Assembly (NCBI RefSeq): GCF_036588685.1
Contig: NC_086380.1
Coordinates: 30,008,001 to 30,072,000, forward strand
Direction of reading: 5' to 3'
Source of the DNA: Mytilus trossulus
Taxonomy: Eukaryota
Length of the DNA stretch: 64,000 bases
A program made the position numbers and the translations under genes. Positions 7,157 to 45,707 of this stretch are shown here, piece by piece; position 1 is the first letter of the stretch, and each line of letters begins with the position of its first letter. Below the pieces are notes generated by a model, which made no database searches, was not told the origin of the DNA, and was given only the letters and a program-made list of their open reading frames with translations.

Positions 7157-10100
7157 ATGTTTTCAAGGCTAGCAAAACCGAGTACTGTCACATTTATTGT
7201 TAGCAGGTCATTCTGCAAAACTTCACAGGTATAAGTCAAATTGAACGGACGCCAAACAATAGGCGGGAATTAAAACATGTTTAAAAATGCTTATCCTTGA
7301 CAGTTGTGATCAGTTGTCGGTTGATGATGCAAAATTGCCTCATCATCAATTCAAGCCAACTATCCTTGATCGCAACACACGCAACTTGTCTTTCTTAATT
7401 TTAAGTAGAGTATGCAGCATTTAGATGTCTCTTCTTTTGTAAACTTAAAGTGAGACAGTTCCTACCTGATCAGCACTAGAACAGCTGATCCTGAAGGTTA
7501 TTCATATAATTGGTGCATGTATATTTAATTTTTCATTTTTTTAAGATATCAGATATATGGATTCGAAGTTGATAAAAATTGTATGCTCCTGTATAACATC
7601 ATACCAAAATTGTAAATTAAAGTCAAGAAAAGAAATGAAAACTGCAAAAATTTATAGCCAGGGTCTATTAAAAAAATCAAAAAAGGATGTATTAAATATT
7701 TTTATTTATGCTCTAACATCATAATTACATGTACATTGAATCATCCAATTAAGGTTTTGATTCTGGGTTTTGCTTAAATTGAATGACACACTCAAATTAT
7801 CTTCTGTGAACTTGGGTGATAAATTAATTTCTACTTATATATATAATTAGTATTCATAGTAGATTTGCTCATAAAGTGTCCTTTTTACTCTTCAAATATG
7901 GAGGGATGTAGTCCCCCTCTTCCCAAACACTTTTAAATATTATGAGCCTTTGTTTCTGTTTCATTGCCCTGATTTGCACACACAAAAAAATGTTTTTGAT
8001 TAAAGCCAATTATAATAGGGCTCTTCACGGTTAGTTCGGCCATATTGGATAGGGGGCAGATTTTCATAATATAGATGTAAAAAATGGTGTGAAAAATACG
8101 GGAAAACATCATTTAAACAGAGCTGTTGCTTAGAAACACACAGGATTTCCCACATTTTCATACTGTTTCCACCTCCTTCCAAAAAATCTGCCCCCTATCC
8201 AATATGGCCGAACTAACCGTGAAGAGCCCTATTGCAATATTCAATTATAATTTTTTCATATCTAATATATCATTTATATAAAAAAGAACTTTTTGTACCA
8301 TGTTTGTGACTGATACATGTATCAACTAGTTTGATTTATTATCAATTCAGTTTCAGAATATACATCAATAATAATATATAAATCAAATTCATTAATTGAT
8401 ATCTTTCAGGCTTGGCAGTCTCCTAAAGTTGCTGTACTTGGAGCCGGTGGTGGTATTGGTCAACCTTTATCTTTGCTTCTAAAAAATTCAGCAAAAATAG
8501 CAAGTCTGTCATTATATGATATTGCTCATACACCAGGTGTCGCTGCTGATTTAAGTCATATTGATACACGAGCCCATGTCACTGGTCATCTTGGTCCAGC
8601 ATCATTGGAAGCATGTCTGACAGACGCAAATGTTGTACTGATACCAGCTGGTGTTCCAAGAAAACCAGGTAAGTGAAAATAAAACTAAGACTGAAATGGT
8701 ATTGGTACAAATGTATGTTCATAATTCTCTAAGGTATGTTCACAATTTCATTGTGCTCTGGTGACGAGATCAAAACAAAATGATCTCTTGAAAAGAAAGC
8801 AGAAGAGATGTGGTATGATTGCAGTAACATGAAACCACTATCCACAAAAGTCTGCATGTCTGAAAGGATACACAAAAGTGCTTCTAAACATTTACATCTG
8901 AGAAAGTGAACTCTGGTGTCAGTTTTAAGGTTGAAAACTCCCCAATTACACCAAATAAATGTAAGATAAGATAAGGCCTTCAACAAGGTGCCTCGCCTCA
9001 CACCAAACAGCAATTCAAACATAAAAACCAACGGTCTAATTTATATAGAAAACGAGAAACACTTGAAAACCACATCAACAAGTAATGACCACAGACACAG
9101 AACAACATGTTCCTGACTTAGGAGTCGGGACAGGTGCTAACAAATGCAGCAGGTTTAAACGTTTTAACAGGTGCCAACTGAACCATTAATATAACAATAC
9201 AATAGAGGATGACACCCTATAAAATATCAAGCATTAAAATGAATAAACATACTGGTACAAAACATTATTATTTAATGATAATATTCCATTAAAATTACTA
9301 TTGATAATTCATTGTTTAAATGTTACAGGAATGACAAGAGATGATCTGTTCAACACAAATGCTGGAATTGTCAGAGATTTAGTGTCAGCCATTGGAGATT
9401 TCTGTCCAAAAGCAATGATCTGTATCATTACAAACCCGGTTAGTATTTAAATGTTACTTCTCTTTTTACAACATTGACAATAAGTTATATGAATTGAATG
9501 GACTTGTTTGTTATTTGATATTGCAAGCACTTTATTATAGGGATTCAATGACTGTGAATACATAAATACAGCAATTCAAGTTAAAAGTATTTAAACAAAG
9601 TTGTGATCTTTTTATTTCAACTGTAATAAAACAATGAAATTGTCAAAAATAAAGAATAAATATAAAATGAAAAACAACAAAAACAGCAGGATCACTAATA
9701 AGGGGAGAGTATAGATTATTCTCAATTGAAACAACTCTTCTGACTCTTAATAAATCTCACTTGCAGGAAATTTAGTGTGAAGACTTGATATGTTATCAGT
9801 TTTAAATTTTAAGATAGAAGAACTCCAGATATTAATTATATTTATTATATATAAGTCTAAGTCCTCATACATGTTATATATGCATTGATTTATTTGTAAT
9901 ATTTAATTTATCCTTTCTTACCAAGGTTAACTCCACAGTGCCAATAGCCGCAGAGGTTCTAAAGAAGAAAGGAGTATATGATCCAAGACGTCTATTTGGT
10001 GTTACAACATTAGATATAGTTAGATCAAATGCATTTGTAGCAGAAGCTAAGGTTTGAGTTTTGTATTTAACACATGTATATATTTTACACCTTAATGGAA

Positions 10101-12813
10101 TGCACTCATTGAATAAATTTGACAAGATTAATAATTTTTTGGTTTGGGTACAAATAAACTAGAAAGTACAAATTTTCTAAAGGTTCCTGTGCAAACTTTT
10201 TTGAAAAACTACAATTTAAAAAAAAAAGAGAATGAGACAACTGTCAACAAGAGACCAAAATGACAGACATTAACAACTATAGGCTACCGTACGGCCTTCA
10301 ACAATGAACAAAGTCCATACCGCATAGTCAGCTATAAAAGGCCCTGATAAGACAATGTAAAACAATTCAAACAAAAAAACTAACGGCCTTATTTATATAA
10401 GAAAATGAATACAAAACCATTTATCTCCAAAAAAATAAATAAATTCACAGTAGGCAGTGAACAAAGATCAATCCTCATTTGTTGCAGCAAATTTTTTTTT
10501 TTTTATCAGAAGCTCTTGCCTCCATTGAGCAAGGCTTTACTGTCACCTAAGTGGAGGCCTTATACAAAAGGAAAGTCAATATCTGTCCCATTCTATGATT
10601 TGGTAAATAAATTCCTTTTGGAAATAAGTGGCATTTTTTACATGCACTTAATATCTAGGAGCAGCCAAAAGCAAGAGCAAGTCAACGATCTGATCTTCAT
10701 GATGAAAATGCTATACTTTCACTATGGTAATAGTCACATACATGTATGAGTTAATTTAAATTTTCATCTTCTTTGTAGATACTGTAGATACTCTGTTAAT
10801 TAATATGACACACCTTTCTTCAATCAAATATATTTACCATTTATTTTCATTGCAGGAATTGGATGTATCTAAATTAAATGTTCCCGTTATGGGTGGACAT
10901 AGTGGAGTAACAATTATACCTGTCATCTCACAAGCTAACCCCAGTGTTTCGTTTCCACCAGTAAGTATCATTGACACCTGTCTGTCAGCTCACAAGCTAA
11001 CCCCAGTGTTTCATTTCCACCAGTAAGTATCATTGACACCTGTCTGTCAGCTTTAAGTATCATTGACACCTGTCTGTCAGCTTTAAGTATCATTGACACC
11101 TGTCTGTCAGCTCACAAGCTAACCCCAGTGTTTCATTTCCACCAGCAAGTATCATTGACACCTGTCTGTCAGCTCACAAGCTAGCCCCAGTGTTTCATTT
11201 CCACCAGTAAGTATCATTGACACCTGTCTGTCAACTCACAAGCTAACCCCAATTATAATTGTTAGTTTTGCCTGTTGTCAGATTAAAATTACATCATCTC
11301 TAGTCCAAAAAAAATAGATGTTAGGAATATGATTGATCAGTTAAATAAATAATGAGAAACAAATATCATGTCTGGTAGTGCAATGGTAAATACACCCTAT
11401 TGAATCCTATATTTCAACTGAAGTCAATATAATTAGCAGATAACTTCTTTTAGATAACATTCATAATTTACTCATGCACTACATGCATCATTGTATTTCA
11501 TGATTCTTCAAATATAACACTGTTTTTTCAGGAGGAGAGAAAGAAGATTTCAGAGAGAATACAGAATGCCGGAACAGAAGTAGTAGAGGCCAAGGCTGGT
11601 GCTGTAAGTTACTCACAAACATTTTGATGTTGATTGTAAAGCTAACTCTGCAAAACCATTTGGTTGCTTGAGAAATTTATTTGCAACATTTTTTTTGTAA
11701 CTTTGAAATATGTTTTACATTACATATACATAAGATGTTTCTTTTTTGAAAAAAAAATGTTCTTACAATGAAGTTTTAAAATCTCCACACTAGTCTACTC
11801 TTTCCAGTCACTATTTGTCTATTCTGCATTGGAAAAAAAAATACAGCGTACCTGAATTTTGTTTGAAGTGTTTATTGATGATTTTACTTCAGCCTATATA
11901 AGCTTATTGTAATATCACCATGTGATGCCTTGAAAGAATAATTGTCATTAATGACTATACAATCAACTAAAAATTCATATCAATGCACGGTTTATAAGAG
12001 TACTTACACCAACATGATTTCTGAACTTTAGGTCGATATGGATATATGCAAACATTGACTATTTTGCAATATCATATGATTACTTTTTTTCCAGGGATCA
12101 GCAACCTTATCTATGGCCTATGCTGCATCAAGATTTACATTTTCACTGTTAGAAGCTATGGCTGGAGGTGAAGGTCAAGTAGAATGTGCATATGTACAGT
12201 CAGAAGAAACAGATGCTGCTTTCTTCTCAACGCCCCTGTTATTGGGTGTAAGTATAAGAATAAGAAGACGTGATATGATAACTCTACCTGAGACCAAATG
12301 TCATAGAAGTTAGCAATTATAGGTCACCGTACAGATTCATTAATGTGCAAAACCATACCACATAAAACTAAGGAAATTACAAATGTTAAACACTTCAAAC
12401 GAGAAAAATGGCCTGATTTATAACCTTGAAATGATTTTAAATATCTGAAAATAATTAATTTCTTTTTCTGCCGATTTTGAATAAACTGAGGACAAATAAC
12501 ACAAGTATAATAAACATCCAAATTCAGTGTTTTATGAATAGTACTTTTACTATTAAAGACTAAAAGCTAATTTTAATTATTCCATACTTTTTTCTCCATT
12601 TAGGTCAATTTTGATGTGTTTATCTTTGTCCTACATGACAAAATTTTTTATTTAAAAATTCTATTTTATTCTTTTTTTCTTCAGAAAAATGGTGTTGAAA
12701 AGAATCTTGGAAGAGGAAAACTCATTGACTACGAAATGCAGCTCTTAGATGCAGCTATGCCTGAACTTAAGAAAAACATTCAAGCTGGAGTTGACTTTGT
12801 AAACAAATCATAG
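7157..12813 (+). CDS. MDH2: Malate dehydrogenase, mitochondrial (8 coding exons, 341 aa)
   Basis: Exons 7157-7228, 8410-8668, 9329-9438, 9926-10051, 10856-10960, 11532-11603, 12095-12247, 12685-12813. All GT-AG and phase-consistent (1026 nt). Presequence-like [16 protein letters not shown]; motifs [47 protein letters not shown]. Confidence 0.97.
8014..8233. mobile_element. MITE with ~50-bp terminal inverted repeats (MDH2 intron 1)
   Basis: AATAGGGCTCTTCACGGTTAGTTCGGCCATATTGGATAGGGGGCAGATTTT and its reverse complement ending at 8233; GGG...CCC core flanked by TA. Confidence 0.8.
10921..11250 (+). repeat. 62-bp tandem repeat built from the MDH2 exon 5 3' end plus splice donor
   Basis: CTCACAAGCT units start at 10927, 10989, 11111, 11173 and 11235; two 30-bp truncated units at 11051 and 11081. 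Confidence 0.95.
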
Positions 12814-19246: not shown

Positions 19247-22200
19247 TTAGACCCTGTGTCAACTGAGCTGATGCAAAGGTTTCCTATTCTATTTTAAGTC
19301 CTTGATAATGCAGCATATGACTAGCACACACCCCGGCACCCGTCCATTTTCATCAAAGAACTACTCATTAAAATAGTAATTGCTAAAATTGAATAAAAGA
19401 GATTTAAAAAAGAAAAAAAAAATACAGATGCCCATAATGAAATTTGTCTCCGTCTCATCTTAGTTTACAGTCTGTGTTTGTATTTCTTAATAGTTGATTC
19501 CCTATAGAAATATCAGGGATATTGATACAGCAGCTGTCTTACTAGCCAAAATTGCTAGGAAAATCTAGTTTCTGCAGTATATTTGGCTTTTGCACATATA
19601 ATAAATTTATAGTCTGACGGGCATCACCGTGTATTACTGAGACTACTCATGATAACACAGTGTTATAGTAGTCTCAGTGTATTTTAATAAAATTAAAATA
19701 ATTTAACAAATATGCTACCCTATATCCTTTTTATTTTCATAAAACTACTGATATTGAATCAATAAGATCAGGAGAATTTCAAGTTCTTAAAAAATATAAA
19801 TGAACAAAATCTTTACAATACTTGATAGAGGTTACTATGAACTTATCATTGAACATGACCTTGACCTCTGGCATTTTGCTTTTCAAACAAAATGTAAGCA
19901 AAATTTAGTCTAAACACTTTTTCTAAATACTTTTAGGGTTTATTTGATTAAATTTCTAAGAAAATTTAATAAAAAAATGACCTACGGTCAAAGTCAAGCT
20001 GAAGGTCATGAATAACCTTTGCCCTTGAGGTCAACTTTCAGGTCATTGAATGCACATTGACAACATGTTCGAAGTGTTTTTGAAGTATACTGATATTTCT
20101 ATTTGAAGATAACTTCAAATGCAAAATATTCTTAGCTTTAAAAGTTTAAACGTGTTTGTTTTGAGAAAAATCATTTGAAATGTTGGATTAAAGGCTGTTT
20201 GGAATTTCCTGATGTTTTGTCAACGGAGGACACATATTCGCCGTTGTTAACTTACACATCTATTTAAAACCAAATAACTGCAGCTTTAAACAATATTGCT
20301 CAAATAAATTTCATTATCTAGATGAATAGCAGACATTTGAAAGGTGTAAAAAATGAAATTTAGGGCAATCAGTCAAAGAATTACTAAAGAAATACTTCTT
20401 TGAAATCGTTTTTTTCATTCAGGAAATTGGCTGAAAATCGTTGTCCCTTTTTCGGTCCTTTTCGATAAGTGCCGAAATTTGGTCTCATTTTCAAAAATAA
20501 TCATATTTGTTATAAAAAATATAATTTACCTGCATAAGTTTCTTCAATTTCAAGCATCCTTTGAAGTTTTTACACCTCAAAATCATAAAGCGGCGAAATT
20601 ATGTCCACGGCGAATATGAGCGCCCCACTCAGGCTACTTCAAAAAAACTTATAAAAGCCGGGAAAGAAAAAAAAGGGGGAACAATGCCTCAAGTACCTGC
20701 ATTTTATTGAATCGCCTATAAAAAAAACCTTGGCGAATGCTCTGGTCATAGGGACAATGATTGAAACAGTGCCTTATGTTACCGATTTCTGATAACAGTT
20801 AATATCATAATAGTATAGTTTAAGCTCCTCATAGAATGAAACCAGATCAGCATGTGTCTGTCCCCTACCTAAAGGTCTCCCAAATACAGCTGACCTTTCA
20901 AAATGTTTACCCGTCTTGCAAAGCCAAATCATGACATACGGTCAATTTTACAGAAATCATTTTCTATATCATCACAGGTAATTATTTCACAGATCAACCC
21001 GTTCGCAGGCTTTGTGAAAGTCAAAGCCTATTGTCAAAGGTATCGACCGTAGTCGTAGACTGTGACAGTGTAAATTGTGTATTGAAAATGTATTGAAAAG
21101 TATTGAAAATAATTTTGGCTTGTGGCTCACTGCAAAAGAGTCGCCCCTATAGTCATGCTCCAATGAATCCCTATAAAATAATCAACTATTTTTTCCAGAT
21201 AAGGAGGACACAAATTTATGGAAAATCATTTTAAATGGTCATGATGGTATGGCATACTAGTCCAAATAATTATGATGTTTGGTTTTCAACATATATTTCA
21301 TAGTTGTAGCATGCTGAAAAATAATGGTACGGTTTCGGCAAATTCGAAATATGGGACATGAAAGTGTCCGATCCAGCCTCATATAGCGAGGCTGCATTAC
21401 GGCAGGGGGTATGGGGGCCGCTCAAGGCCTCCAGAAGCTCTGGGATTTATAGCGTTATAATCCTGCATTCTAAGTGTTTCATGGCACTAAAAAATGTTTC
21501 CCAACAGCAGCATTTTTTACAAGACCATTTGATAAAAAATGAATGTCTGTGTCTTGCGGGTTTTGCAGTTTGTTTTCTATTTTTGTGTCCTTAACATAGC
21601 AAGATTGGCGAATGAGAACAATACTGCCATACTATTATCTCGCAACAAATCATTGGGCAAAATTCATGATTTACAAGTGATTTCTGTCAGTTTATTAATT
21701 ATAAGATCTTAAAATATTATTATTTTTAAAATAAAACAATCAAAGTACGGCTAGCAACTATTGAGCTATAGTGAATAGAAAAATGAATGAGGATCGGGAA
21801 TGTGTAAAAAACTACAACAATCCTCACACACTGCATGCATGGGATAAGCTGCAGCTGGTCCGGTAGTCCTATAATATAAGACTTCTGAGATTCATATCAT
21901 TTACATTTAACTTTTTTTATCGGATATTTAAAAAAAAAATCAATGTTGAACCCATCTTCGCTAGCCAAGGGTTATGTGTTGAACCCGAATTCGGGTTAAA
22001 CCATGTGATTGATAGTAAATAAAATACATAATAAAAAAAGGTTGAGTGCAAATGATCAGTCAGAGATATAACTCTATAGGGTTATTACAGAAAATAACTT
22101 ACATGTGTTATTACAGATACTTTTCTTTAAATTTTCTAAATCTGTAATAACATATGTTTGTTATTTGTAAAATTATTTAATCTATAGTGGACTCTAGGGA

Positions 22201-25129
22201 ACTCTTGAGACTTTGCGCAGAAACTAAATGCATAGCCTTGATAATTAATTTTTAAATTGAATTAATACATTTTTGATTAACCATGGTTAATCAATGAAAC
22301 AAGGCTATTTAGGAATTAGCTTAGCTGTGATAACAACATGAACAAGGCTTAGTTATTAAAGGAATGTAACTTATTATATAAGACACTTGGGAATTACTGA
22401 GAAACTTGCGCAGAACCTCATTACATGCTCTGGTCATTATTTCTAACAATAAATTTAAATACATTGTAATTAAGCATGATTTATGTCTGAGCAAATACTT
22501 TGAAGTGATATAAAGAAGCTGTGATAACACCCTTTAGTTATTATTGGCGAGTTTTGGATGTGTCTATGGGCCACTCGATATCTCTCGGTCGGAAGTCAGA
22601 ATTAATTTCTCGGAACGTATCGAAAGTTTTCGGTTGTTTATACAGGACTACAGGTCGTTATCAAGTCTTTGATGTGGTCCCTTGAGGGCCCTTGACGATG
22701 TAATTATATGTTGGTCAATTATAACTTGGTCACTAGTGTCTGTTGTCTCGATAACATGTAAACTAATTATGTTTGAAGATTCAACCACGGGATACTGTGT
22801 ATTTCATCATAGACTTGCGAGAGAGAACATTCAGGTTAAAATATTTAAAATATTAGATCGGAAAACAGAAAGATAATATTCTTATCAAATTTATTTTATT
22901 CAATCCGAATCAAAGAAACGTATATAAAATATATACTGTATTTATGTTTCTGAAGAAACTAACAATGATTGAAATCAGAATGTTTTCAGAGTTGCAATTA
23001 AGAAATAAGCATTTTATATGACAAGATACTCTGCTTTGGTATTTTTAAATACTCATTTGTACCGGAAACATAAAAATTAAATTTTTGCATCATACAAAAA
23101 AAATGTTTATAATCATAATCCTTACATTTCTACGTTATTTATTTCATACCATGGTGTTATTGGTTTTTTTTGAGTAATTAAGTTTTTTTGTATTATTATA
23201 TATCCATAAAAACGGAAAGTAAGATAAATCTATAAAATATTCCAATTTTAAACGGTCGTGAATAAAAATACTTGTGTGTTTTCAATTCATAAAGTATGAT
23301 TTTAAATCCTCGCAGCTCACATCAACCGTAAAAATAATCATTATTTACAATTATCACAAAAAAATTTAATTACGACCATAATGTTGATTATTTTATACTG
23401 GTTTAGTATGGATTTAGAAGCCTTTGCTTATATTTTGCATAGTAATATATTCACATAGTGGAATGTTTGAATTTGAAAATAGATTCATTCGATAAGTAAA
23501 ATGTCCATCAGTAAATACTTGACTTTCGTGTCAGTTATTGATTTTATATATATTCAAAGCATTTGAAAAAAAATACTAACAAAAACGTTAGTTTATTATG
23601 AAATTTCAATTCAAATTTTGTTTTTTTTGTTTTAATAGTTTAACCTTATAGCATCTACATACTGTACTATGGTACGGTTTTGAAAATTGTATTCATTGTG
23701 TTGACCAACTATCCGACATGTCTTGATTCATTCACAATTATAAATCACATTTCAAAAGCACACTATCGGTTTGCGTTCTCAAACATTCTGGATAAAATGT
23801 CAATGAATTCGGAGTCAAAACATTTAATGTAGACCGTTTGACATTCGAATTCAACTATTAGATTTTCCTGAGTATCGGTGCGCTGAAATAATACTTGCAT
23901 ACAATACTATTAAATTCATTGGTGAAAGCTTATGTTCGTTTTTGTTATCTAAATACAGGACACGGCAGAAAGAGCTTTACATGTGACTTTCAAGCACGGT
24001 CATCATTACTAACGGCATTCTGACCTCGAGTTGTTTCTATTTTATTTCTTTTTTTGAGTCACTGTTCTATTATAAACTTTGTTCGAAAAGCTAAGGATTG
24101 TCTACCCAAGGAATAGATTCCTTAACTTTGTAATGTACATGTATTTAGTCTTTTAACTTTTTTCATTCGAGCGTCCCTGATGATTTTCTTGAAGACTTAA
24201 CTCGTGTCTGGCAAAGGTATTCATAAACTTCAGAATTAAGAAATTCTTCGGCAAAACTAAGTTTCCCTGTATAATGTTTGAATTGATTTAGTAAAATCAG
24301 GAAATCCTTAAAATTTGAGATGTTTTATGAGACCAAAAAAAGTCTCTTCGTAAGAGGTTCCAATCAATTGCATGCCACAGGTTTCACCGCATACAATATC
24401 TACCATGAGAACAAAATATAAAGATATGATAGGTAAAATAAATGCATCCAGAATTCTAGATTATAAAGCAAACTGAGTGCATAAATTTTTATTGCGATAG
24501 GTTTGTGCAATTTGCATAAATCATCCGGTTAGTAGAAATTAGGATTTGTCAAAGAGTTATAATCGGAAACATTATGTACATTCCCAAGTAATAGATAAAA
24601 TAGTTGAGCTATAACATAACTATTCAAATAAATACTGTAAATATATACTCTCAACTGGCTTCTTCTATTCACAGTCAATTATTTCAATTCAAAAGCAAAC
24701 ACAAATACAGCAACAATCTTTTGGTGACCCGGCAGTCAGCGGTCTTAGGTTCATGTATTGCATTTCTTTTTTTTAAAGAAAGCAACTTGTTCTGTAATAA
24801 CATATAGGTGTGCTATTCAAAATTGGAATACTATGAACTGTTATATCTTTCAATAGTTAAGTATACATAAAGACAAAAGTAATATCAATAGAACTTGTAT
24901 ACATTTTAACTAAACTTATGATGTATATTGTCCCTTTGAAATATATAACATACGTATGTTATCACAGTTCTTTGATTTTTTAGTCCACAATAACAAATGT
25001 ATGTTATTTTCCTGTAATAACTCTATAGAGTTTATATCCCTGACTGATGATATGAACCTCAAAAGTATTTTATTATAGGACTGCCGTCCCAGAAACAACA
25101 TATTCTGGGTAATGTACACCTTTCTAGAC

Positions 25130-25440
25130 CCCCATCCCGCTGCAAATGTTTGCACCTGTCCTAAGTCAGGAATCTGATGTACAGTAGTTGTCGTTTGTTT
25201 ATGTAATATATACGTGTTTCTCGTTTCTCGTTTTGTTTATATAGATTAGACCGTTGGTTTTCCCGTTTGAATGGTTTTACACTAGTAATTTTGGGGCCCT
25301 TTATAGCTTGTTGTTCGGTGTGAGCCAAGGCTCCGTGTTGAAGGCCGTACTTTAACCTATAATGGTTTAATTTTTAAATTGTTATTTGGATGGAGAGTTG
25401 TCTCATTGGCATTCACACCACATCTTCCTATATCTACCCA
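25130..25440. mobile_element. Abundant SINE-like repeat; other fragments at ~8800-9180, 10230-10410, 12260-12420, 27860-27950, 57495-57600, 57875-58290, 59065-59305
   Basis: Shared blocks GATGTGGTATGATTGCCAATGAGACAACT, TATAGGTCACCGTACGGCCTTCAAC and CCTGTCCTAAGTCAGGA (either orientation). Confidence 0.7.
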
Positions 25441-28402
25441 TAACACACAAAAGAACTTAAATTGAAAACAATACAAGAAAAACAAAGCCAGAGGTTCCTG
25501 ACTAGAGAGAGTCGCAAAATTGCGATAGGGTTTTAAACATGTTAAATGTTTCAAAGTGAACGTTAAATACAAGCACTTCAGTCGACACTAGGAGTCATCT
25601 TGGCCTGGTAGAATATAAATATTTAATGTGATCATGCAGCCACTATCAAGATGAAGAACTGAAATAAATAACTGTGTTCTTGATAATTTGTATCTTGTTT
25701 AAATGTACTGTGTACGATTTTGTCATATAAATATATGCATATTTACTAGAGAGCCTGTCGCAATTACCGTGATTTTTTGGACAACGGTTGTCTTGCAAGA
25801 AGGACCTGCTTACACTTCTGGAGCACCTGTAGTCGCACCAGTTTTTTTTAAGGGGTCAGTCCGTGTTTCTAATTTGATTTTGGCTTTCACTGTTGAATGG
25901 TGTTGTTTTTCTACATAAATCAGTGTACACCATTCCAACAGTTTTTTTTTAATTATTGTAATAAACAATCATGATGGAAAGAGTAAATCAGCGGTCTCAC
26001 AAAAACAGCCTCCCGGTGAAGTATAGATATGTGAAATAATAGTGATTTATCTTCTGGTTTATGTTACAGAAGGGCACTTAAAGAAAGGCACAGTGCAGGA
26101 AGTGGTATTAAGACTTAGAGATCTCACGAATCCCGACAGAGTCCCGATACAGGTTATATCCCCTTTTGCAATACGGTATCTTACATTTTAAAAAAGGCCC
26201 TCACCTCTGATTTCAATTGACATTATGCTTGAAATATTTGCAACTGTACGTTAGGAAAATAAACAATCAATCAACTGAATTTGAACTTGACTTGTGGTGG
26301 TTTTATTAAAAAAAACCGAGTGAAATCATTACATACATCTGTTACCTGCAAACCTAAGGATATTGCATTGTGCAAACAATAATATTACTATTTCCAATGT
26401 TTTAAATGCTATGAGGTTTATCCCTATCTACATCATCTGGAATCAAAAATTGCAACAATTATTCAAAAGAAAAACTGCTGGCTGTTTCAACCTTGAAAAT
26501 GTTTCCAAACTGATGCGTTAAACTTAAAGAACTAGCAACATCATGTGAAGATTTTCCGAATTTATTAGCTGTCGATTGTTGCTGGCTTTAGCATTCTTCA
26601 GATTATCCATCAGTTTCAGTTTATTCAGTCTGTGTCAGATTGGCGCATGAACCATAACAACACCCAACATTATCTGCAACAGCATCTTAAACAATGCCGA
26701 TTAATTAATCATTAATTGCTAATCAATACTGATTACGGTATTTTGGTTACGTACATTGACATGCTCAGTACTTTTAATGTTGAAAGACGTTTTTTTTCAT
26801 TCTTTAAGAAAACAGCCTTCAAGATAAATGTAAAACATTTATTGTATGGAAGTTGTATGCTATTTAAGCTTTTTTTTTTTAAATATGTTGATTTTTTTTT
26901 GGTACCAACCGTACCGTGTGCTACGCCAGTGTATTTGTTCCACCTAACAGAAGTTCCAGTGGTAACTTTATTATAAACAATGTCATAATACCTGTACCTG
27001 ATGGAACAAATATTCTATACTATTTATTCTGTTAGGTACATCTATTGTAACATTTATTCCTACATGGAAGTAATATTCCTGAATATTTTTCCATTTGGAT
27101 CTTACATTTTGAAGGAACTTCTATTCCGTGACATGGCAAGGCTATTTTAATTTGTCACTAATTGCAGGGGATTTCCCCCATAAAAGAGGGTCTGGATTTG
27201 GGAGGTGTCTGTTATTCTGTAAACATTTAATTTTAACCCCTTTTTTCTCTAATCTTAAAAAAATTAGCCCATTTTTTCTCTAATCTTAATTTTTTTGCCC
27301 GTTATTCTCTAATCTTCATTTTTTAAGGGCATTATTCTTTAATCATATAACCCCATCCAAACCCTCATGAAAGCTCCTAAATGGAAATTTTATAAGAGCA
27401 ATTTTGTCTACAATTTTAAACTAAACAGTTTATTTTACATTTGTAGACAAAATGCATGAAGAAGGCCACCTTGAACTTTAAAGCCATCTTGCAAGCTAAA
27501 CCCCCATGTGCATTTTGAAAAGTAAGCAGGTATGATATGGTCCTCAGACATAAATTAGGGTGAGGGTGAAATCAAATGCTGATTAACTTATGTTGTCAGA
27601 AATTCTGAAAAATAAAAATAAATTCTGGCATTCTCACATGCCGATCACATGATCACATGATCGAGATGATTGACAGCTGCTAGAAACAGTTTATGTTGTT
27701 GGAGGAAAGTGGTATGAACCCAAATGGACACGTCTTACTTTTATACACTCTTTAGGAGCATATAATACAAAACAGAAACTCTTCTGGACATTCCGAAATA
27801 AATAAAGTTTTCTGAGTTATCTCCCTTAATACATTGTAATGCAAATTTTTAAAAACAATCATACATTACAGTGACCTATAAATTTTAATTTCTGTGTCAT
27901 TTTGGTCTCTTGTGGAGAGTTGTCTCATTGACAATCATACCACGTCTTCTTTATTATATATATTTTTGAAACTTTATCTAACGGTTTAATCTCATTTTCT
28001 TTAATGATAAAGTTAAAGGAAAAAACAACATCAACTATTAATGATAAACATCGCGATCATCTTTATAATCATGGTTTATAAATTTGTAATATTATAGTTT
28101 GGTAAAAGCACATACCCCACATCCAAATCATCAGAGGGAAATTTAGGGGGAGGGAGCCTGTGTCCTCTCTTATAAAGAAAAACTTTGATTGAATGTTTAT
28201 GCAATCACTGAAGCATGACTGTAGCAGACATTGGGTAATCATGATCAGTTATCGTAATCAGATGTAATCGATTTCATTTTGCAGTGTAATCCTATGCAAT
28301 CAGTAATCATGCCATTTCTAATTACAAGTTATTGTAATGTAATCGATTACATTGCAAAAAACAGGTGTTATCATTATTACTTTGAGATAACTTTAAGATT
28401 AA

Positions 28403-28982
28403 AGGAGTAGGTCCGGTAAGGACCGATTTTGGCCTCAAATTTCAGGTTCATTTGACAAAAGATTTTAACCACTTTTTAAACACTTAAGTGTCTATTTCAT
28501 TTGAATCAAATTGTTTATGTGAAAGATTTTAACTGATTTAGTCATTAAAAACGATCCGATTCAAACTCAAATATGAAAAATCAACCAAATATGCCAAAAA
28601 ATGTAACTTTTCGGATGGTTTTTGTCAAAAACGAAAGTGGCCGCATCCGTGTTCATCCTCAACCTTTAAATATGTTATGTATTATCATAAAATACAACTT
28701 TCATTTCAATATTAAGGATGAACACGAATGCAGCCACTTTCGTTTTACACGAAAACCGTCTAAAATTTAACTTAAATGCTAGAATTTTGAAGAATTCAGT
28801 AATTTAGCATGACTTTAAGGTGCCATTACCCGATATATGTTCATTGTATAGTCAAAAATAGCCCATATTTATGTAGCAGAAGCACTCTACTGTTCAATAA
28901 ATAATTAAAAGTTTACATTTTATCAATTTTGTAAAACTGCTATATTTTGAGGCCAAAAAGGGCTCTTACCGGACCTACTCCT
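28403..28982 (+). mobile_element. Kolobok-type non-autonomous DNA transposon
   Basis: TIR AGGAGTAGGTCCGGTAAG / CTTACCGGACCTACTCCT; flanked by TTAA (left) and TTAT (right); AG...CT termini. Confidence 0.75.
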
Positions 28983-29585
28983 TTATGTGATTACTTGCTG
29001 ATTACAAATCCTGTATACATCAGTACATATTATTTGCTGATTACAAATCCTGTATACTTCTTGCTAATTACAAATCTTGTATATTTATTTGAAAATAGTT
29101 TTTGATAGACAATATGAAAATAAGAAAATCTAAAGCATAAATGAAAAATCATAAAATTAGTAGGACTTTGTTTAATGTGATAAATTGTATCATCTATATA
29201 TCAAGTTTTGTATAATTAAGTGTTTTATTTTGTTAACAGTTTACTAAAGGAATTTACCTTTCCAATGTTTCGTTGTGAGATTGGGCTCTTATGATACAAG
29301 AATATGCCTTGAAAGCATTTGTTGTTCCTTGATTGAACATTTCTCATGTTTCTGATACTAACTCCAATTTCATATAATTTTGCCCAATATTTTGTCACTG
29401 TAGCCCCCCTCTTAGGATCATCCTTTGATCATCACTTCTCATCAATGTATTTGAATCTAAGCCAATACATCATATAGACTTATAAGAGCCATGAAAATTA
29501 AAGACTCTCAGTATTCATGTTAATAGCTGATAGCCACCATGATCACTTCTCATTAGTGTTACACATATGTATTTAAATCTTTCAG

Positions 29586-32500
29586 GTGAACAATAATCAC
29601 CAACATCCCCATCGTCACCATCCAGTACACCATCATCAACATCCTGTTCACCATTCACCACATAAAGTGACAGTACTGGGAGCAGGTGGAGCTGTAGCTC
29701 AACCATTGTCTCTTCTGCTGAAAAGTTCCTCCAAAGTTGGCAGGCTATGTTTGTACGATATAGTTCACTCACCAGGTGTCGCTGCAGACTTAAGTCACAT
29801 AGATACAAGAACTGTTGTTACTGGTTACCTAGGCACTGAACAGCTGGAGCCCTGTCTGACAAAATCTGATGTTGTACTAATAACAGCTGGAATTCCTAGA
29901 AAACCAGGTAATTAAATGATTAACAAATGGGACAATCGCCAAAATCGCCAAAACACTACACATAAAACTAAGAGTAGAAACTTAGTAAAAAGGCTAGTGA
30001 GGAAATCAGTTAGTGTGACGAGATTCTGCTCTACAAGTCACAGTACTAGTCTTGTCAGGAAAAGTATATATCTGGCAATATAAAATCATATTCTGTGGTA
30101 ATGAATAAGGATCAGAGGACATGATTATGATTTATAGCTTGCCTTATGGTTTGGATGCTATGAAGTTATGATAATGACCTTGAGATAGAAGATAAAGATA
30201 TATTGGATTTATAATTCATTGAAACAGCATCCATTGTATACAGTGAAAAAAAAATACCAGGAGACAAACTGCAGCCTTCAACTACATGTACTACTACATG
30301 CATGGGTGTTTAATGACCTTGACTACCCATGAAATTTCACACAATCAGCAGTCCTCAACAATGAATTAATACTATGTATGTCAAGCTTTTAGTTATCCAG
30401 ATTTCACATCAGTTACACCAGGAGATGTGGTACAATTGTTAATGAGACATGCATCAAAGTCTACAGGCAATTATGTAAAAAAAGGGAAAAGATACCAAAG
30501 AGATATACTCAATTTCAAGTGGAAAACACCCTGAAAGTACCACATGGTAAAAATTGCAAAAGGATCACAAGAACAAACAACAGTATAAGAAAGAAAACAT
30601 AGAAAACTAAAGACTGAGACACAGGAACCTACCAAAATTTGGTGGTGATTTCAGGTGCTCCATAGTGGTAAGAATATGTCATGATGCTCTTTTAGTCTAA
30701 TTAATTAGGTCTTTTAGTAGCTAAATGTAAGTTCAAATGCTTCCTTGTTGTCCCCTTTTCTTTGGAATGATGATCCATTATTTAATTCAAAATTAAGATT
30801 TTTAGTTTTGTAAGTTTGTTGCCTTACAGGGAGACCTACACTTAGACTTAAACTAGAGGCTCTAAAGAGCCTGTGTCGCACACCTTGGTCTATGTGAATA
30901 TTAAACAAAGGACACAGATGGATTCATGACAAAATTGCATTTTGGTGATGGTGATGTGTTTGTACATCTTACTTTACTGAACATTTTTGCTGCTTACAAT
31001 TATCTCTATCTATAATGAACTTGGCCCAGTAGTTTCAGTGGAAGATGTTAGTAAAAATTTACAAATTTTATGAAAATTGTTAAAAAGTTACTATAAAGGA
31101 CAATAACTCCTTAAGGGGTTGATTGACCATTTTGTTCATGTTCACTTATTTTTAGGTCTTACTTTGCTGTACATTATTGCTGTTTACAGTGTATCTCTAT
31201 CTATAATAATATTCAAGATAATAACAAAAAACGGAAAATGTCCATAAAATTACCAATTCAGGTGCAGCAACCTAGCAACAGGTTGTCCGATCAATCTGTA
31301 AATTTCAGAGCAGATGGATCTTGACATGATAAACAAGTAAACCCCAGTCAGATTTGCTCTAAATGCTTTGGTCTTTTTTGTACATAAATTAAACCAAGTT
31401 TTAATTTAATTTTAAATCGAAATTGACAATTCAAATTGTCTGACCTGTTGAGTAATTAAATTATGAAGCCAGTTGGTATGGAATTTTTATTTGTTTATAA
31501 TAATAGTTTGGAGCTTGTGATTAAATGCCAGGTGTGAATTAAAAACACAGGTAAAGAGATTAGCAATCATTAGCCAATAGCTCCCCGAGGCATTAATACA
31601 GTTATTAGGAGGGCCCTCAGGATTAAAACACTTTATTGGAGTGGCAGTTTAATTACAAGAAGTTGATAACAAATCAAAAATATGTTCAAAATGGCGATTT
31701 TGAAAGTCGATCTCAACGAAATGACCGAAATTATTACTGTTGAAAAATAAAATTTGACCTAAATCCCAATTAAAAGTTTAGGACATTATAGTTTCAGTTT
31801 AGGACATGACTGGCAAATATGACTGTTTCCGGACCCTTGCTTTGAGTTATAAGCCACAAACTGCATTTTACCCCTATGTTCTACTTTTAGCCGTGGCTGC
31901 CATCTTGGTCGGATCAGAGACATATATACACATATATGTCTCTGGTTGGATGTCCGGGTCAACAGACACATTTTTTAAACTAAATATCCCAAAGATGATT
32001 GTGGCTAAGTTTGGATTAATTTGGCCCAGTAGTTTGAGATGAGAAGATTTTGTAAAAGATTACTAAGGTTACGAAAAATGTTTTAAAATTGACTATAAAG
32101 GGCAATAACTCCTAAAGTGGTCAACTAATCATTTCGGTCATGTTGACTTATTTGTAGATCTTACTATGCTGAACATTATTGCTGTTTACAGTTTATCTCT
32201 ATCTATAATAGTATTCAAGATAATAACCAAAAACAGCAAAATTTCCTTAAAATGACCAAAATCAGGGGCAGCAACCAAACAAAGGGTTGTCTGATTCATC
32301 TGTAAATTTCAGGGCAGATAGATCTAAATGCTTTGGTTTTAGAGTAATAAGCCAAAACTGCATTTTACCCCATGTTCTATTTTAAGCTGTGACGGCCATC
32401 TTAGTTGTATGGCTGGGTCACTGGACACATTTTTTCAAATAGATACCCCAAAGATGATTGTGGCCAAGTTTGGATTAATTTGGCCCAGTAGTTTCAGAGG

Positions 32501-35500
32501 AGAAGATTTTTGCAACAGATTACTAAGATTTATGAAAAATTGTTAAAAATTTACTATTAAGGGCAATAACTCCTAAAGGGGTCAACTGACCATTTCGGTC
32601 ATGTTGACTTATTTGTAAATCTTACTTTGCTGAACATTATTGCTGTTAACAGTTTATCTCTATCTATAATAATATTCCAGATAATAACCAAAAACAGCAA
32701 AATTTCCTTAAAATTACCAATTTAGGGCAGCAATCAAACAACGGGTTGACAGATTCATCTGAAAATTTCAGGGCATTTAAATCTTGACCTGATAAACAAT
32801 ATACCCCTATGTCAGATTTGCTCTAAATGCTTTGATTTTTGAGTTATAAGCCAAAAACTGCATTTTACCCCTATGTTCTATTTTTAGCCATGGCGGCCAT
32901 CTTGGTTAGTTGGCAAGGTCACTGGACACATTTTTTTTTAAACTAGATACCCCAATGATGATTGTGGCCAAGTTTGGTTTAATTTGGCCAAGTAGTTTCA
33001 GAGGAGAAGATTGTTGTAAAAGTTAATGACGCCGGACCCCAGACGGTGGACGCAAAGTGATGAAAAAAGCTCACTTGGCCCTATGGGCCCTATGGGCCAG
33101 GTGAGCTAAAAAATAAACGTTTTTTTCTTTAAAATAGGTATGACTGAGGATGAACAGTTCAACACAAATGCAGGAATTGTCAAAGATTTAGTGTCTGCCT
33201 GTGCAGAGTTCTGTCCAAAAGCAATGATCTGTATCATTACCAACCCTGTAAGTACAATGAATGTGAAACATGATGTAAGTCAAAAGCTGAAAACAGGCAT
33301 TTAATGTAGTACATGTACAATGTGCTAATATCAGCATGTACCAAAGTTAATTTTAGATAGGAATAAACATGATAAAAGAGATGTTGGAGTATTCAATAAT
33401 GAAATATCTACCTTAAAACACAATAAAACTAAACAAGACATGTATAGGACAACATATGTTCTTCAATGATGTCAAGTTTTTAAAAATGGTTACATTTTAG
33501 ATTGATTGATTGTTGGTTGCTTTACGCCGCATTAGCACAACAAGGCTATATCACAGCGATTCTATTCTCGACAATTTGTACATAACATAGGTATATCTAC
33601 AGGTCTTATCCCAAATTCTTAGAGGTCTTAGAGTAATGTAACTAAAATTGAAAAATAAAGCAAAACACACAATGATTTCTTAATGACAGCATTTTACTAA
33701 AATGCTATTATGTCAAAAAGATTTATGCTATATATTAAATAAATTAATATTAAAAGATAATCTTGCATGTTTTCAACTCTTTAGGTAAATTCAACATTGC
33801 CACTTGCTGCTGAAGTTTTGAAGAAGAAGGGTGTATTTGATGAAAGACGCTTGTTTGGAATGACAGCATTAAACTTATCAAGAGCAAAAACATTTGTGGC
33901 AGATGCAGTGGTAATGACTTTTTAGCTTATCTAAAACTTCTGTCTTTTTCTTTAATATAAATGTTTAAAAAGTGTCAAAATAGGTGCAATTTGGGTACCC
34001 TCATATTTTAAGTAATTTGCAGTGAACCTAGTTTGGAAGACATATTTTTACTTGAACAGTTTTGGTCACACTATTAGCTTTTGAAAAGTAATTAATCAAA
34101 AGAGTTGATATATTTTAAATATTTGTATAGGTTTATAATTCTTTATTTGAATTTTCAATATTGAGATTAATGATTATTATGAGGAGAAATAAATTCATAT
34201 TCAAACATAAGCTTAATTTTTAGGGTTGCAATGTTGCTAAGCTAGTGGTACCAGTTGTGGGAGGAAACAGTGGAATTACTATTGTACCTCTAATATCACA
34301 AAGTATACCTCCTGTAGATTTATCACAGGTAAGTACCAGTCATGTCTCCAAGTTAGTGGTACCAGTTGTTGGAGGGAATAGTGGTACATGTATATCTGTT
34401 GTACCTCTTGTATCACAAAGTTTACCTCCTTTCTGTTAAACACAGGTAAGCACCAGTCATTGTTGTCACTCAACATACCTGATTAATATCTATGGCTACT
34501 AGCAAGGTTGAAACACGGATCTAAAGAAATAAAAATTTGTAAGGGTTCCGCGGAACCCAGTGTCTCGCCTACTTTTGTTGTAAATCACAGGCTCAACAAC
34601 AATGAGGGAAAAAAATCAATAAAAATATTCCTCTTGATACTATCTTTTGATTGTAAGAAGCTTCTGTCTAAGTTTGGTAAAAATCTAGGATAGTTAATTA
34701 ATCTTATAAATGTTTTGAAAATTTTAACTGCAGACTGTATGTAATATTAACTGGAAGAAAATTATAGACCATTTAAAAGTAAAATACAGAAAAAATGGAG
34801 TTATACTTTTACAAAATTTACTTCTGGATACTATCTTATAATAGTCCAAGTTTGGTACAAACCCAGGATAGTTAAAGAAAGTTTTTAAAATTTAACAACT
34901 TTAACCACAGAGTGAATGTAATGTTTCCCTGCAGAAAAACTAAGTCCATTTAAAAGTAAAATACGGAAAAAATGGATTTATTTTTTTACAAAATTTACTT
35001 CTGGATACTATCTTATGATCATAAACAAGCTTCTGTCCAAGTTTGGTACAAACCAAGGATAGTTTAAGAAAGTTATTAAAATTCTAAAAACTTTAACCAC
35101 AGAGTGAATAAAAATTTTCCTCACAGAAAAAACTAAGTCCATTTATAAGTAAAATATGGAAAAAATAGAATTTTATTTTTACAAAATTTACTTCTGGATA
35201 CCATCTTATGATCATACACTAGCTTCTGTCCGAGTTTGGTATGAATCCAGTATAGTTTAAGAAAGTTATTAAAATTTCAAAAACTTAAACCACAGAGTGA
35301 ATATTTGTGGACGACTACGCCGACGGAAAGTAGGATCGCTTAGTCTCGTTTTTTCGACTAAAGTCGAAGGCTCAACAAAAACTGTACGGATGGAGTGTGA
35401 TTGAATTTATTATTTTTTTGTTCAAAAGCCCCTGCAAATCCAAGTTGGTAGTTTATTTTATAATATAGTGTTTTAATTCTTTAAAGAACATTGATGACAT

Positions 35501-38498
35501 ATAGGGATGTTATTTATGTTCTAAATAGGATAAGATCGTTCACCTATATGGTATGGATTGCACTTACTCATGTTCACAAGTGGACCTCATTGTCCAAGTG
35601 GTATTTTAGTTAAAACACATGAAAATAAAGGAATCCACAGTATTTGTCCATATACCTTAAGACATTTTATTCCCTCATAACGGTTCATTAGGAGATTTCT
35701 GGATTTTCAAAAAACTTCTTCTTTCCTGGTATCTAGATTGTTTTTTCTTGTTAGTATAAATGTATACTTTGTTTAAACAATGAACACTCAATTTAATAAC
35801 TTAGCATTGTTTCCCTTTTACCCAGTGTTCTTTAACCATTTTTTATGCCAGGGGAAAGGTAAATATTTAAGGAAACTCCATACATAGAATCTACCATGGA
35901 AGCTACCAGTCATCATATTTGCTGTGTATAATAAATTATAGAACTTTGGCCATTTTTTATTTAGGAAGAAAGAAAGAAAATAATACAGAAACTACAGAAT
36001 GCGGATACAGAGATTATTGAGACAAAAGCTTCAACTGTAAGTGATCTTTAGTAAACTTGTACAAGAAGCACCTTACAATAAACCTTGTGGATACTGTTAA
36101 AAGTTGATCTGAGCTTGAGTTGTTACAATTTTTTTTTTTACAATTACACATCATAAATCTTGATTGTAGAAGAATGCTGTCTGATGCAGTCCAGCACTTG
36201 TTTTATTCAGGGTAGTTATTAAGAAATAATTGGTGCAAGCTATACTTTATTGTAGTTTTAACATAGGTAGGCATTATATTCATGATTATTTTTGCCCGAG
36301 TGATAATGAGGGCTAATATAACACAAATATAATGACTACCCATATTAAAACTACAATAAAGTATAGCTTACATCAATTAAGGACAATTAAGGTAATTTAT
36401 ATGTCTGATGTGTGTAAGTGTAGAATGTTTGTGTAGGCTCTTCCATGAATCTCCTTTTTTTGTTTGCAAACAAGCAAAAGACTGGCAATGTGATTTTTCA
36501 GAGGGATGAGTTTTGAACAGCCAGAATGAACGATTGTCTTATTTAAGTCAAATATGTCAATTTCAACTGCAACACATAACAGTCATAATAAATGACTTGG
36601 TAAACAACATGTGCATCATTTTAAAGGTTGGAAGTGTTTTAAGTAAAATGCATATCAATTTGATAAAAATTCATTACTCTGCAGCAGTCAATATAAGCAT
36701 GTGCCAACAAATATTATTGGATTTAGAGCATGGGTTTATTCACAAAGTGAATGAAGCACATCATATTAGAATGAATGATAATTCAGTCAAACAATTTTTT
36801 TCATGCCAATTTTCAAGATGAAAAACTTGTAGATTTACAAAAAACATCATTAACATCTCGAAATTAACTGGTTGCATTAAGGGGTTTCACAACCCTTTGA
36901 AAATGTAAAAATAGAAGAACAGTATTATATTCTAAAAGATAAGACCTGCTTAAGTGATCTTTTTTTTAAATTTGAAAAATGTGTTTTATTTTTAGCTCAA
37001 ACACAAATTATATTTTTAACAGGGTTCAGCAACTTTGTCTATGGCACATGCAGCCTCCAAGTTCACACTATCTTTGCTAGCAGCAATAGATGGAGAGGAA
37101 GGACAAGTAGAGAATGCCTATGTAAAATCAGAGGAGACCACCTCACCTTACTTGGCAACACCTCTGTTACTAGGAGTAAGTATATGATAATGTAAAGTCA
37201 GAGGAGACAACCTCACCTTACCTGGCAACGCCACTGTTACTAGGAGTTAGTATAGGAGAATGTAAAGTCAGAGGAGACCACCTCACCTTACTTGGCAACA
37301 CCTCTGTTACTAGGAGTAAGTATATGATAATGTAAAGTCAGAGGAGACAACCTCACCTTACCTGGCAACGCCACTGTTACTAGGAGTTAGTATAGGAGAA
37401 TGTAAAGTCAGAGGAGACCACCTCACCTTACTTGGCAACACCTCTGTTACTAGGAGTAAGTATATGATAATGTAAAGTCAGAGGAGACAACCTCACCTTA
37501 CCTGGCAACGCCACTGTTACTAGGAGTTAGTATAGGAGAATGTAAAGTCAGAGGAGACCACCTCACCTTACTTGGCAACACCTCTGTTACTAGGAGTAAG
37601 TATATGATAATGTAAAGTCAGAGGAGACAACCTCACCTTACCTGGCAACGCCACTGTTACTAGGAGTTAGTATAGGAGAATGTAAAGTCAGAGGAGACCA
37701 CCTCACCTTACTTGGCAACACCTCTGTTACTAGGAGTAAGTATATGATAATGTAAAGTCAGAGGAGACAACCTCACCTTACCTGGCAACGCCACTGTTAC
37801 TAGGAGTTAGTATAGGAGAATGTAAAATCAGAGGAGACCACCTCACCTTACTTGGCAACACCTCTGTTACTAGGAGTAAGTATATGATAATGTAAAGTCA
37901 GATGAAACAAAAGCAGTTTAAACATTTAAATATGTGGTTAACCTGTACATATAAAATCCAGGAACATTGGTATTCAATGAATAATAATGAATCCTCAGTA
38001 GCAGAAAAAAGCTGCTATCATGACAACAAAATGAAGAAAGTATTAAGGTTTTATAAAGTTGCAGTAGTCAAAAACCGCTTACATGCCAAAGCTAGTGTTA
38101 CTGAAAGTTAGTATAGGGGAATATACAGTATATATGGAGACAAAAACAGCTATCATGACAATACCTAGGAGTAGGTATACAGGGATTTTAAATCTGAGAA
38201 AGCAACAGAAACAAGAACATGTAAAATAATCAAATAAATAAACCAGTTGTTAGACCAAATAAAAACTTTGTTTCATATATAAACTTAAGTGTGATTTTAT
38301 TTGGAAAAATTCCTGTAATAAAGCTTTCATGCATAGGGCAAATTTAAAGCAGAAATGATTTATTTTCAGGATGAAGGAATAGTAAAGAATCTTGGTATGT
38401 CTAGTTTGGATGAGTCTGAGACAGAACTGGTGAAAGCAGCCCTACCTGAATTAAGCAGACATATTCAAAAAGGAATAGATTATGCTAATAAGTCATAA
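29586..38498 (+). CDS. MDH2-like tandem paralog with His-rich N-terminal insert and substituted active site (predicted pseudoenzyme); exons 2-8, first exon not firmly located (candidate 27506-27529, MCILKSKQ)
   Basis: Exons 29586-29907, 33138-33247, 33785-33910, 34224-34328, 35965-36036, 37023-37175, 38370-38498. Exons 3-8 match MDH2 in length and phase, all GT-AG, no stops or frameshifts. Motifs [43 protein letters not shown]; ends GIDYANKS*. Confidence 0.92.
30851..33113. mobile_element. Helentron-associated non-autonomous element (HINE/pearl-like) with ~460-bp internal tandem units and a nested insertion (~31371-31837)
   Basis: Terminal stem-loop AGGCTCTAAAGAGCCT; other end AGCTCACTTGGCCC..GGGCCAGGTGAGCT followed by an A-run; GACG-type microsatellite remnant ~33028-33052; units begin GGGCAATAACTCC at ~32100 and 32561. 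Confidence 0.75.
34528..35381. mobile_element. Second HINE-like element with ~180-190-bp tandem core repeats
   Basis: Stem-loop GGGTTCCGCGGAACCC near one end and TTCGACTAAAGTCGAA near the other; ACAAAATTTACTTCTGGATAC at 34811, 34988 and 35181. Confidence 0.7.
36227..36379. repeat. Long intronic inverted repeat (hairpin) of probable transposon origin
   Basis: TAATTGGTGCAAGCTATACTTTATTGTAGTTTTAA pairs with TTAAAACTACAATAAAGTATAGCTTACATCAATTA. Confidence 0.75.
37121..37902 (+). repeat. 70-bp tandem array with A/B alternation (140-bp higher-order unit) built from the paralog exon 7 3' end plus donor
   Basis: 11 monomers (6 A with GTAAGT, 5 B with GTTAGT) at exact 70-bp spacing from 37121, plus a partial unit. 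Confidence 0.97.
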
Positions 38499-45657: not shown

Positions 45658-45707
45658 GAAGAACATAACCCGTGTCATGCCAACAACTGTTTTTAGAATA
45701 AATGTGT

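Follow-up and report, generated by a model that had tools for sequence, protein, structure and literature searches.

The Drosophila S-Laps are inactive enzyme duplicates that serve as structural parts of sperm mitochondria (PMC6388916; review PMC11012351), and the Drosophila Mdh2 paralogs CG10748 and CG10749 are male germline-specific and mitochondrial (PMC6154878, PMC7560327). In the malate dehydrogenase (MDH) family, plastid NAD-MDH belongs to the FtsH12-FtsHi/Ycf2 complex (PDB 8xku), where its role is independent of its activity (PMC8197885). The histidine-rich domains (HRDs) of mussel preCols are terminal stretches of 20-100 aa that contain about 20 mol% His and bind Zn, Cu, and Ni (PMC6477608).

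We present here a tandem MDH2 paralog of the mussel Mytilus trossulus that carries a His-rich N-terminal arm. Like the S-Laps and the fly Mdh2 paralogs, it is a duplicated mitochondrial enzyme with a presequence; as in the S-Laps, the catalytic residues of the duplicate are lost and the presequence is kept. The fly Mdh2 paralogs have a separate origin, whereas the mussel paralog nests with Mytilus MDH2, and the accessible portions of the fly accounts make no mention of a His arm. Plastid NAD-MDH is of the same family but is an active moonlighting enzyme, while in the mussel copy the catalytic residues are replaced. The preCol HRDs are likewise terminal, His rich, and from mussels; they belong to secreted collagens, whereas the arm of the paralog (55% His in 22 aa) sits on a protein predicted to reside in the matrix. 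Inactive duplicates of mitochondrial enzymes are familiar, as are His-rich tails; an MDH2 fold combining the two was encountered in these searches in Mytilus only. A literature search, with most subscription journals outside its scope, returned no paper on this Mytilus paralog.

Gene structure

The window is the whole stretch analyzed, 64,000 nt of M. trossulus contig NC_086380.1 (assembly GCF_036588685.1, forward-strand positions 30,008,001 to 30,072,000); the features of MDH2 and of its paralog are on the + strand. The parent gene MDH2 (7157..12813) encodes 341 aa with all catalytic residues intact in eight exons (7157-7228, 8410-8668, 9329-9438, 9926-10051, 10856-10960, 11532-11603, 12095-12247, and 12685-12813), and its product is identical to residues 23-363 of XP_063396091.1. 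An in-frame upstream ATG (7091-7156) gives 22 extra residues in the M. trossulus and M. edulis RefSeq models; other records begin at 7157. The tandem paralog (20903-38498) encodes 363 aa, and its spliced product is identical to M. trossulus XP_063397522.1; exon 7 lies at 37023..37175, and exon 8, including the stop codon, at 38370..38498 completes the 363-aa product. The eight exons of each gene match in phase, the introns are GT-AG, and neither frame contains an internal stop; the products are identical at 217/341 aligned residues.

Several repeats accompany the two genes. A 117-nt partial tandem copy comes after paralog exon 5 (34239-34460), and the copy number of this exon varies: an M. edulis isoform (P0003) has a second copy, and the representative P0374 has three. 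MDH2 contains its own tandem array at 10920-11251 (62-nt unit, 5.4 copies), made of the 3′ half and donor of exon 5. The terminal part of paralog exon 7 recurs in an array at 37120-37910 (units of 70/140 nt; 11.3 copies; 99% at period 140) that contains donor-like sites. In paralog intron 1, 29425-29460 is a near-copy of the sequence just 5′ of the exon 2 acceptor (29540-29580). On one 279-kb contig of M. coruscus, the paralog-like models CAC5371862 and CAC5371863 lie beside MDH2 CAC5371860 (P0004, P0006, and P0126); the two are either isoforms or a further duplication. Retroelement remains occupy 1340-2263, 3006-4628, 45700-48300, and 51610-54750 and include zf-RVT and DUF1759/DUF1758 with an aspartic protease. 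They further comprise a reverse transcriptase (RT)-like region with no Pfam match, which has a 978-nt duplicate (99%, 45138-46114/48993-49969), and, on the minus strand, an open endonuclease-RT frame of 1,046 aa.

Catalytic residues and constraint

Ten paralog rows were compared with 225 non-paralog MDH2 sequences at the active-site residues that we take, in E. coli numbering, to be catalytic (H177 and D150) and substrate binding (R81, R87, and R153). The catalytic His, present in 225/225 of the others, is Asn in nine paralog rows and Lys in one (n = 10). The catalytic Asp is found in 223/225 others (2 gaps), and the paralog rows have Asn in nine cases and a gap in one. The second substrate Arg (R87) is Arg in 224/225 others and Glu in 10/10 paralog rows, R81 and R153 are both retained, and an invariant pocket Gly is Asp in 10/10 paralog rows. 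In the M. trossulus gene, these replacements are Glu136 (33146-33148) in exon 3 (33138..33247), in place of the second substrate-binding Arg; Asn199 (33872-33874) in exon 4 (33785..33910), in place of the catalytic Asp; Asn226 (34266-34268) in exon 5 (34224..34328), in place of the catalytic His; and Asp260 (36004-36006) in exon 6 (35965..36036), in place of the invariant substrate-pocket Gly. The NAD-ribose Asp is retained in 9/9 aligned paralog rows, and the nucleotide motif has Ala or Ser in place of its last Gly; Ala at this position also occurs in active cytosolic MDH1.

Judged by these residues, the paralog is probably a pseudo-MDH without malate dehydrogenase activity. The initial annotation had described a dead enzyme, and this description is supported: the catalytic His, the catalytic Asp, and one substrate Arg are replaced, and the core is under purifying selection. 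Compared with the MDH2 family, the paralog shares exon structure, fold, presequence, the NAD-ribose Asp, two of the three substrate Arg residues, and most interface segments. It differs in having Asn for the catalytic His and Asp, Glu for Arg, Asp for the pocket Gly, Ala or Ser for the last nucleotide-motif Gly, and the His-rich N-terminal arm. In database records from five mussel species, it is annotated simply as mitochondrial malate dehydrogenase, despite the lost catalytic residues.

A tree was built from a selection of 33 of about 240 rows. Rooted at the midpoint, it joins the paralog and Mytilus MDH2 as sister groups (support 99/95), the stem of the paralog measuring 0.58 versus 0.085. 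The next branch holds two intact MDH2s, P0130 and P0131, which are likely from other mytilids. Between M. trossulus and M. californianus, the paralog is 89.7% identical and MDH2 98.1%, so that the paralog evolves about 5 times faster. Among five orthologs, 51 sites are variable, of which 9 belong to the 117 highly conserved sites, compared with 19.1 expected (P = 0.0008). The dN/dS of the paralog versus MDH2 is 0.18, with a dS of 1.34, near saturation. Fixed paralog changes at conserved sites number 18, many of them in the active site; the difference at Lys355, also a conserved site, is a change in MDH2 and not in the paralog. The locus is a tandem duplication of MDH2 with active-site replacement and an intact frame in five species.

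His/Pro-rich tract and its expression

The His/Pro-rich tract (29598..29663, residues 30-51) is predicted to be disordered. It translates, as initially annotated, to 22 residues with 12 His and 4 Pro and with HPVHH twice, and it stands just before the first Rossmann strand, which begins at Lys52 (29664). Its exon 2 (29586..29907, phase 0) is 322 nt long, compared with 259 nt for MDH2 exon 2, a difference of 63 nt as first noted. Of 32,442 stop-free 22-codon segments in six frames, all 18 with at least 7 His are at 29577-29628, and the maximum elsewhere is 6. The His codons of the tract are mixed (8 CAT and 4 CAC). A Pfam search gave no family matching the tract, and an ESM Atlas search with residues 20-75 gave a best score of 0.89 to short proteins and was uninformative.

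The intron 1 acceptor (29576..29585) has its last 9 intron nt and first exon base in common with the MDH2 exon 2 acceptor. Since this acceptor is shared over 10 nt, it was probably inherited from the ancestral gene, with the additional 63 nt lying within the exon; exonization of intron sequence through an acceptor shift was considered and ruled out by the same identity. The acceptor AG (29584-29585) has the top score (9.6) among all AGs in 29300-29907; scores of the 13 other true acceptors range from 8.5 to 17.9. The initial annotation had foreseen that transcripts might use a downstream acceptor and skip the tract. There is no in-frame AG between 29586 and 29844, and the only in-frame AGs within exon 2, at 29844 (score, −12) and 29850 (−14), score very poorly and lie deep in the NAD domain, so the tract cannot be spliced out in frame. 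All 6 of 6 full-length gene models, which are annotations and not reads, join exon 1 to the tract; they come from M. trossulus, M. edulis, M. galloprovincialis, M. coruscus, and M. californianus.

For transcript evidence, 4 of 24 sequencing runs were aligned to 20600-37110, where intronic repeats dominate. The exon 1-2 joint was absent among the 15 joints listed (there were 422 further joints) in these four runs over this region, and coverage of paralog exons 1 and 2 was thin. In one run (X10), a single 175-nt contig covers 29618-29792 (depth, 2.7; 7 differing letters), its status as RNA being a guess. Two other runs (X1 and X2) gave a 29810-33149 joint whose intervening letters are undetermined and which may derive from MDH2; it was left uncounted. 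In a search for short spliced fragments (Logan), all tract matches were unspliced genomic read-throughs of exon 2. These observations would fit a paralog that is barely expressed or decaying, with the tract never made in meaningful amounts. We consider this very unlikely, given the eight exons in the phases of MDH2 without a stop, the intact models in five species, and a constraint that tracks MDH2 conservation.

Fold, dimer interface, and charge

The paralog passes TIGR01772 (MDH_euk_gproteo) with 381 bits against a cutoff of 273, and its two strong Pfam matches are the LDH/MDH domains PF00056 and PF02866. Its AlphaFold model has a mean pLDDT of 85.6, with residues 16-47 below 50; the core superposes on human MDH2 with a root mean square deviation (RMSD) of 1.2 Å, and the model superposes on the MDH structures PDB 2dfd and 1mld with an RMSD of 1.1-1.2 Å. 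Three segments, presumably dimer-interface helices, are identical to MDH2 at 8/8, 12/13, and 12/14 positions; a fourth interface-contributing helix is identical at only 5/13. The paralog core has a pI of 5.5, compared with 6.3 for MDH2.

These properties bear on a metal-free pH switch, in which the 8-12 His residues would become protonated upon acidification of the matrix during emersion or anoxia, altering the oligomeric state or the binding to MDH2 or membranes and so tuning tricarboxylic acid (TCA) cycle or malate flux. The pKa of His, about 6.5 (PMC6477608), suits such a switch. The more acidic core does so too, as do the retained interface segments and the former substrate pocket, which has gained acidic residues and could dock a protonated arm. 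The AlphaFold model, however, shows the arm undocked, and matrix pH is normally well above 6.5. On balance, a pH switch appears unlikely.

Targeting and predicted mature N terminus

Exon 1 (20903..20977) encodes a 25-aa mitochondrial presequence homologous to that of MDH2, with a net charge of +3 and an amphipathic moment of 0.58 (0.51 for MDH2). A simple hydropathy test found no hydrophobic core in exon 1 (best 8-residue hydropathy, 0.82), and there is no upstream in-frame ATG. The rule for two-step presequence removal places R or K at −10, a hydrophobic residue (F, L, or I) at −8, and S, T, or G at −5 from the mature start. This motif occurs in 170 of the 193 other MDH2s with a presequence, and in 158 of those 170 it predicts a mature protein that begins one residue ahead of the first-strand Lys, as does the porcine chain 1mld. 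In the paralog, the motif is K-x-F-x-x-S (20954-20971); Lys in place of Arg is likewise seen in 29/170. The call was made at motif level, from the family cleavage register, and places the paralog start at Asn28, giving a predicted mature N terminus of Asn-Asn-His (29592..29600). Asn-Asn-His is the predicted start in 7/7 paralog models with a presequence, from five species. Removal of the tract as part of the targeting peptide, a prospect raised in the initial annotation, is not supported by this register, which puts the predicted cleavage ahead of the tract.

Asn-Asn-His is of the X-X-His type known as ATCUN, an amino-terminal Cu/Ni-binding motif formed by a free amine and a His at position 3. 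The mature paralog is thus predicted to begin at an ATCUN-type Cu/Ni site; the fit depends on predicted cleavage, and in the paralog a poly-His/Pro stretch then follows. Among the 170 other MDH2s, an X-X-His predicted start occurs once, in P0131. The Asn-Asn-His start represents one or two evolutionary events plus a prediction, and we regard it as a lead.

The presequence also speaks to a role as a byssal or shell His-metal crosslinker like the preCol HRDs, which likewise form a terminal His-rich stretch in a mussel protein (PMC6477608). With an exon 1 of mitochondrial type, no hydrophobic core, no collagen or flanking domains, and only the LDH/MDH domains as strong Pfam matches, such a role is so improbable that we give it hardly any weight. 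The byssal parallel drawn in the initial annotation accordingly finds no support, there being a mitochondrial presequence, no signal-peptide-like stretch, and no collagen domain.

Origin and conservation of the tract

The tract contains a degenerate 21-nt tandem duplication (29610..29651) with 4 mismatches, 2 of them synonymous; with CAT and CAC mixed, it is not a pure microsatellite. M. coruscus and M. californianus lack one 7-residue unit that matches this duplication, and their shorter tracts have 9 and 8 His, respectively. The check for length polymorphism proposed at the outset thus found the tract in five Mytilus species in two lengths, one 21-nt repeat apart, with the direction of the 7-residue indel unpolarized in a comparison without an outgroup. 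Absence of the tract from orthologs, which would have spoken against it, was not seen in any of the five Mytilus species examined.

The last five residues of the tract, HHSPH (29649..29663), are likely its ancestral seed, given their likeness to MDH2 relatives. Before the first-strand Lys, the paralog has HHSPH, the intact P0131 HHSNH, P0130 QQSNH, and Mytilus MDH2 WQSP. The last 22 residues are free of His in 181 of the 225 other sequences and contain at most 3. We infer a His-bearing seed that existed before the gene was duplicated and was then lengthened in the paralog, with loss of the His from MDH2. To call the insert "new" was consequently too strong, as the tract likely grew from an HHSxH seed present in a catalytically intact MDH2 relative, P0131; the same HHSNH leaves a de novo origin of the His motif after loss of catalysis unsupported.

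Conservation of the tract was assessed in three samples. In 11 edulis-complex sequences, variable columns number 0/22 in the tract and 7/82 in the adjoining core (Fisher P = 0.34), and tract length is constant in 11/11. In six genomic alleles, 0/22 tract columns vary, compared with 3/22 in intron read-through (Fisher P = 0.23); tract and core together vary at 2/104, against the same 3/22 (P = 0.04). Across the five species, the eight shared His columns are invariant, and 4 of the other 11 columns vary. Taken by itself, the tract gave no significant signal of selection in either Fisher test. That a disordered tail is as conserved as the core suggests constraint, in a sample too small to show it.

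Degenerate MDH2-like proteins are not confined to mussels, and the others offer a comparison. Five catalytic sites could be aligned in 140 of the 150 best cluster representatives; all five residues are present in 91, and the His is missing in 16, several of which appear truncated or misaligned. In the 128 representatives with an aligned N terminus, the 22-residue stretch preceding the first strand has at most 3 His. Since the other degenerate MDH2-like proteins among the 128 examined have no His tract, a pseudo-MDH2 needs no such tract. Seven proteins (P0400, P0409, P0420, P0466, P0479, P0485, and P0521) are near full length and MDH2-like with the catalytic His missing, some with presequence-like N termini; in five of the seven, the pocket Gly that is replaced in the mussel paralog is likewise replaced, by Asp or Glu, a hint of convergent pseudo-MDH2s. 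Orthologs of the paralog beyond Mytilus were not found in the best 120 of each protein search or the best 150 cluster representatives, which may cover few other mytilid proteomes.

The tract could be a tolerated passenger: in a permissive linker, a His-containing seed would have been expanded by slippage once constraint on the duplicate relaxed, so that the arm does nothing specific and the pseudo-MDH acts through its fold, by NAD(H) binding, as a heterodimer with MDH2, or as a scaffold. The 21-nt tandem structure and the 7-residue length difference favor this, as do the seed in an intact relative, the roughly fivefold faster evolution of the paralog, the lack of a tract in the other degenerate proteins, and the nonsignificant selection tests. 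A neutral disordered tail, however, should vary more than the core, and the tract varies less than or equally to it; its His columns are invariant while adjacent non-His columns change, and its length is constant in the edulis complex. We regard a passenger tract as the main competing reading and a serious possibility, although short of probable.

Discussion

We tentatively favor, at slightly less than an even chance, the reading of the His tract as an in-frame, predicted-disordered metal-binding arm on a mitochondrial pseudo-MDH2, with Cu or Zn as the likely metal. This reading draws on the single usable in-frame acceptor ahead of the Rossmann fold, the gene models that join exon 1 to the tract, the cleavage register, the invariant His columns, the degenerate repeat, the predicted disorder, the constraint on the core, and the three conserved interface segments. 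The arm would have grown within exon 2 as the older HHSxH seed underwent short tandem duplications. Two-step removal of the presequence is predicted to expose Asn-Asn-His, followed by 7-11 further His. The paralog presumably still dimerizes like MDH2, the near-unchanged interface segments making dimers with two arms likely. Metal bridges between arms might then link dimers, or the arms might hold Cu or Zn in the matrix; the role of the arm would be structural or regulatory rather than catalytic.

Several points weigh against this metal-binding arm. Selection tests on the tract were nonsignificant, the other degenerate MDH2-like proteins examined have no such tract, the fourth interface helix is poorly conserved, and the exon 1-2 joint was absent among the joints listed in four runs. 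The tract is 7 residues shorter in one species group than in the other. The intact P0131 has HHSNH and a predicted X-X-His start, and the linker may be His prone in this clade. The Asn-Asn-His start is one event, and a His at position 3 of a His-rich tract is not very unlikely. Free Cu and Zn in the mitochondrial matrix are very low. The initial annotation had proposed a metal-binding or pH-sensitive assembly tag on a dead enzyme; the pseudo-MDH under purifying selection and the coding, retained tract bear this out in part, while the metal or pH role itself stays conjectural.

Mytilus is a genus that transmits paternal mitochondria, and by analogy with the fly duplicates, a germline role of the mussel paralog may be envisaged. 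In the most specific form of the proposal, a Cu/Zn His arm, specific to Mytilus, would crosslink MDH-fold dimers into a metal-bridged scaffold within sperm mitochondria, putting His-metal assembly to use inside cells; this version is improbable.

A native His-tagged MDH look-alike would copurify on metal-affinity columns, confounding MDH2 proteomics. Mussels are much used in metal monitoring and in studies of paternal mitochondrial inheritance. The paralog is an uncomplicated example of a pseudoenzyme that has been conserved and bears a single lineage-specific addition, the chemistry of which is accessible with a short peptide. Should the arm prove neutral, only the pseudoenzyme itself would be of interest; if the arm binds Cu or Zn in the matrix, an MDH scaffold would be tied to mitochondrial metal handling or structure.
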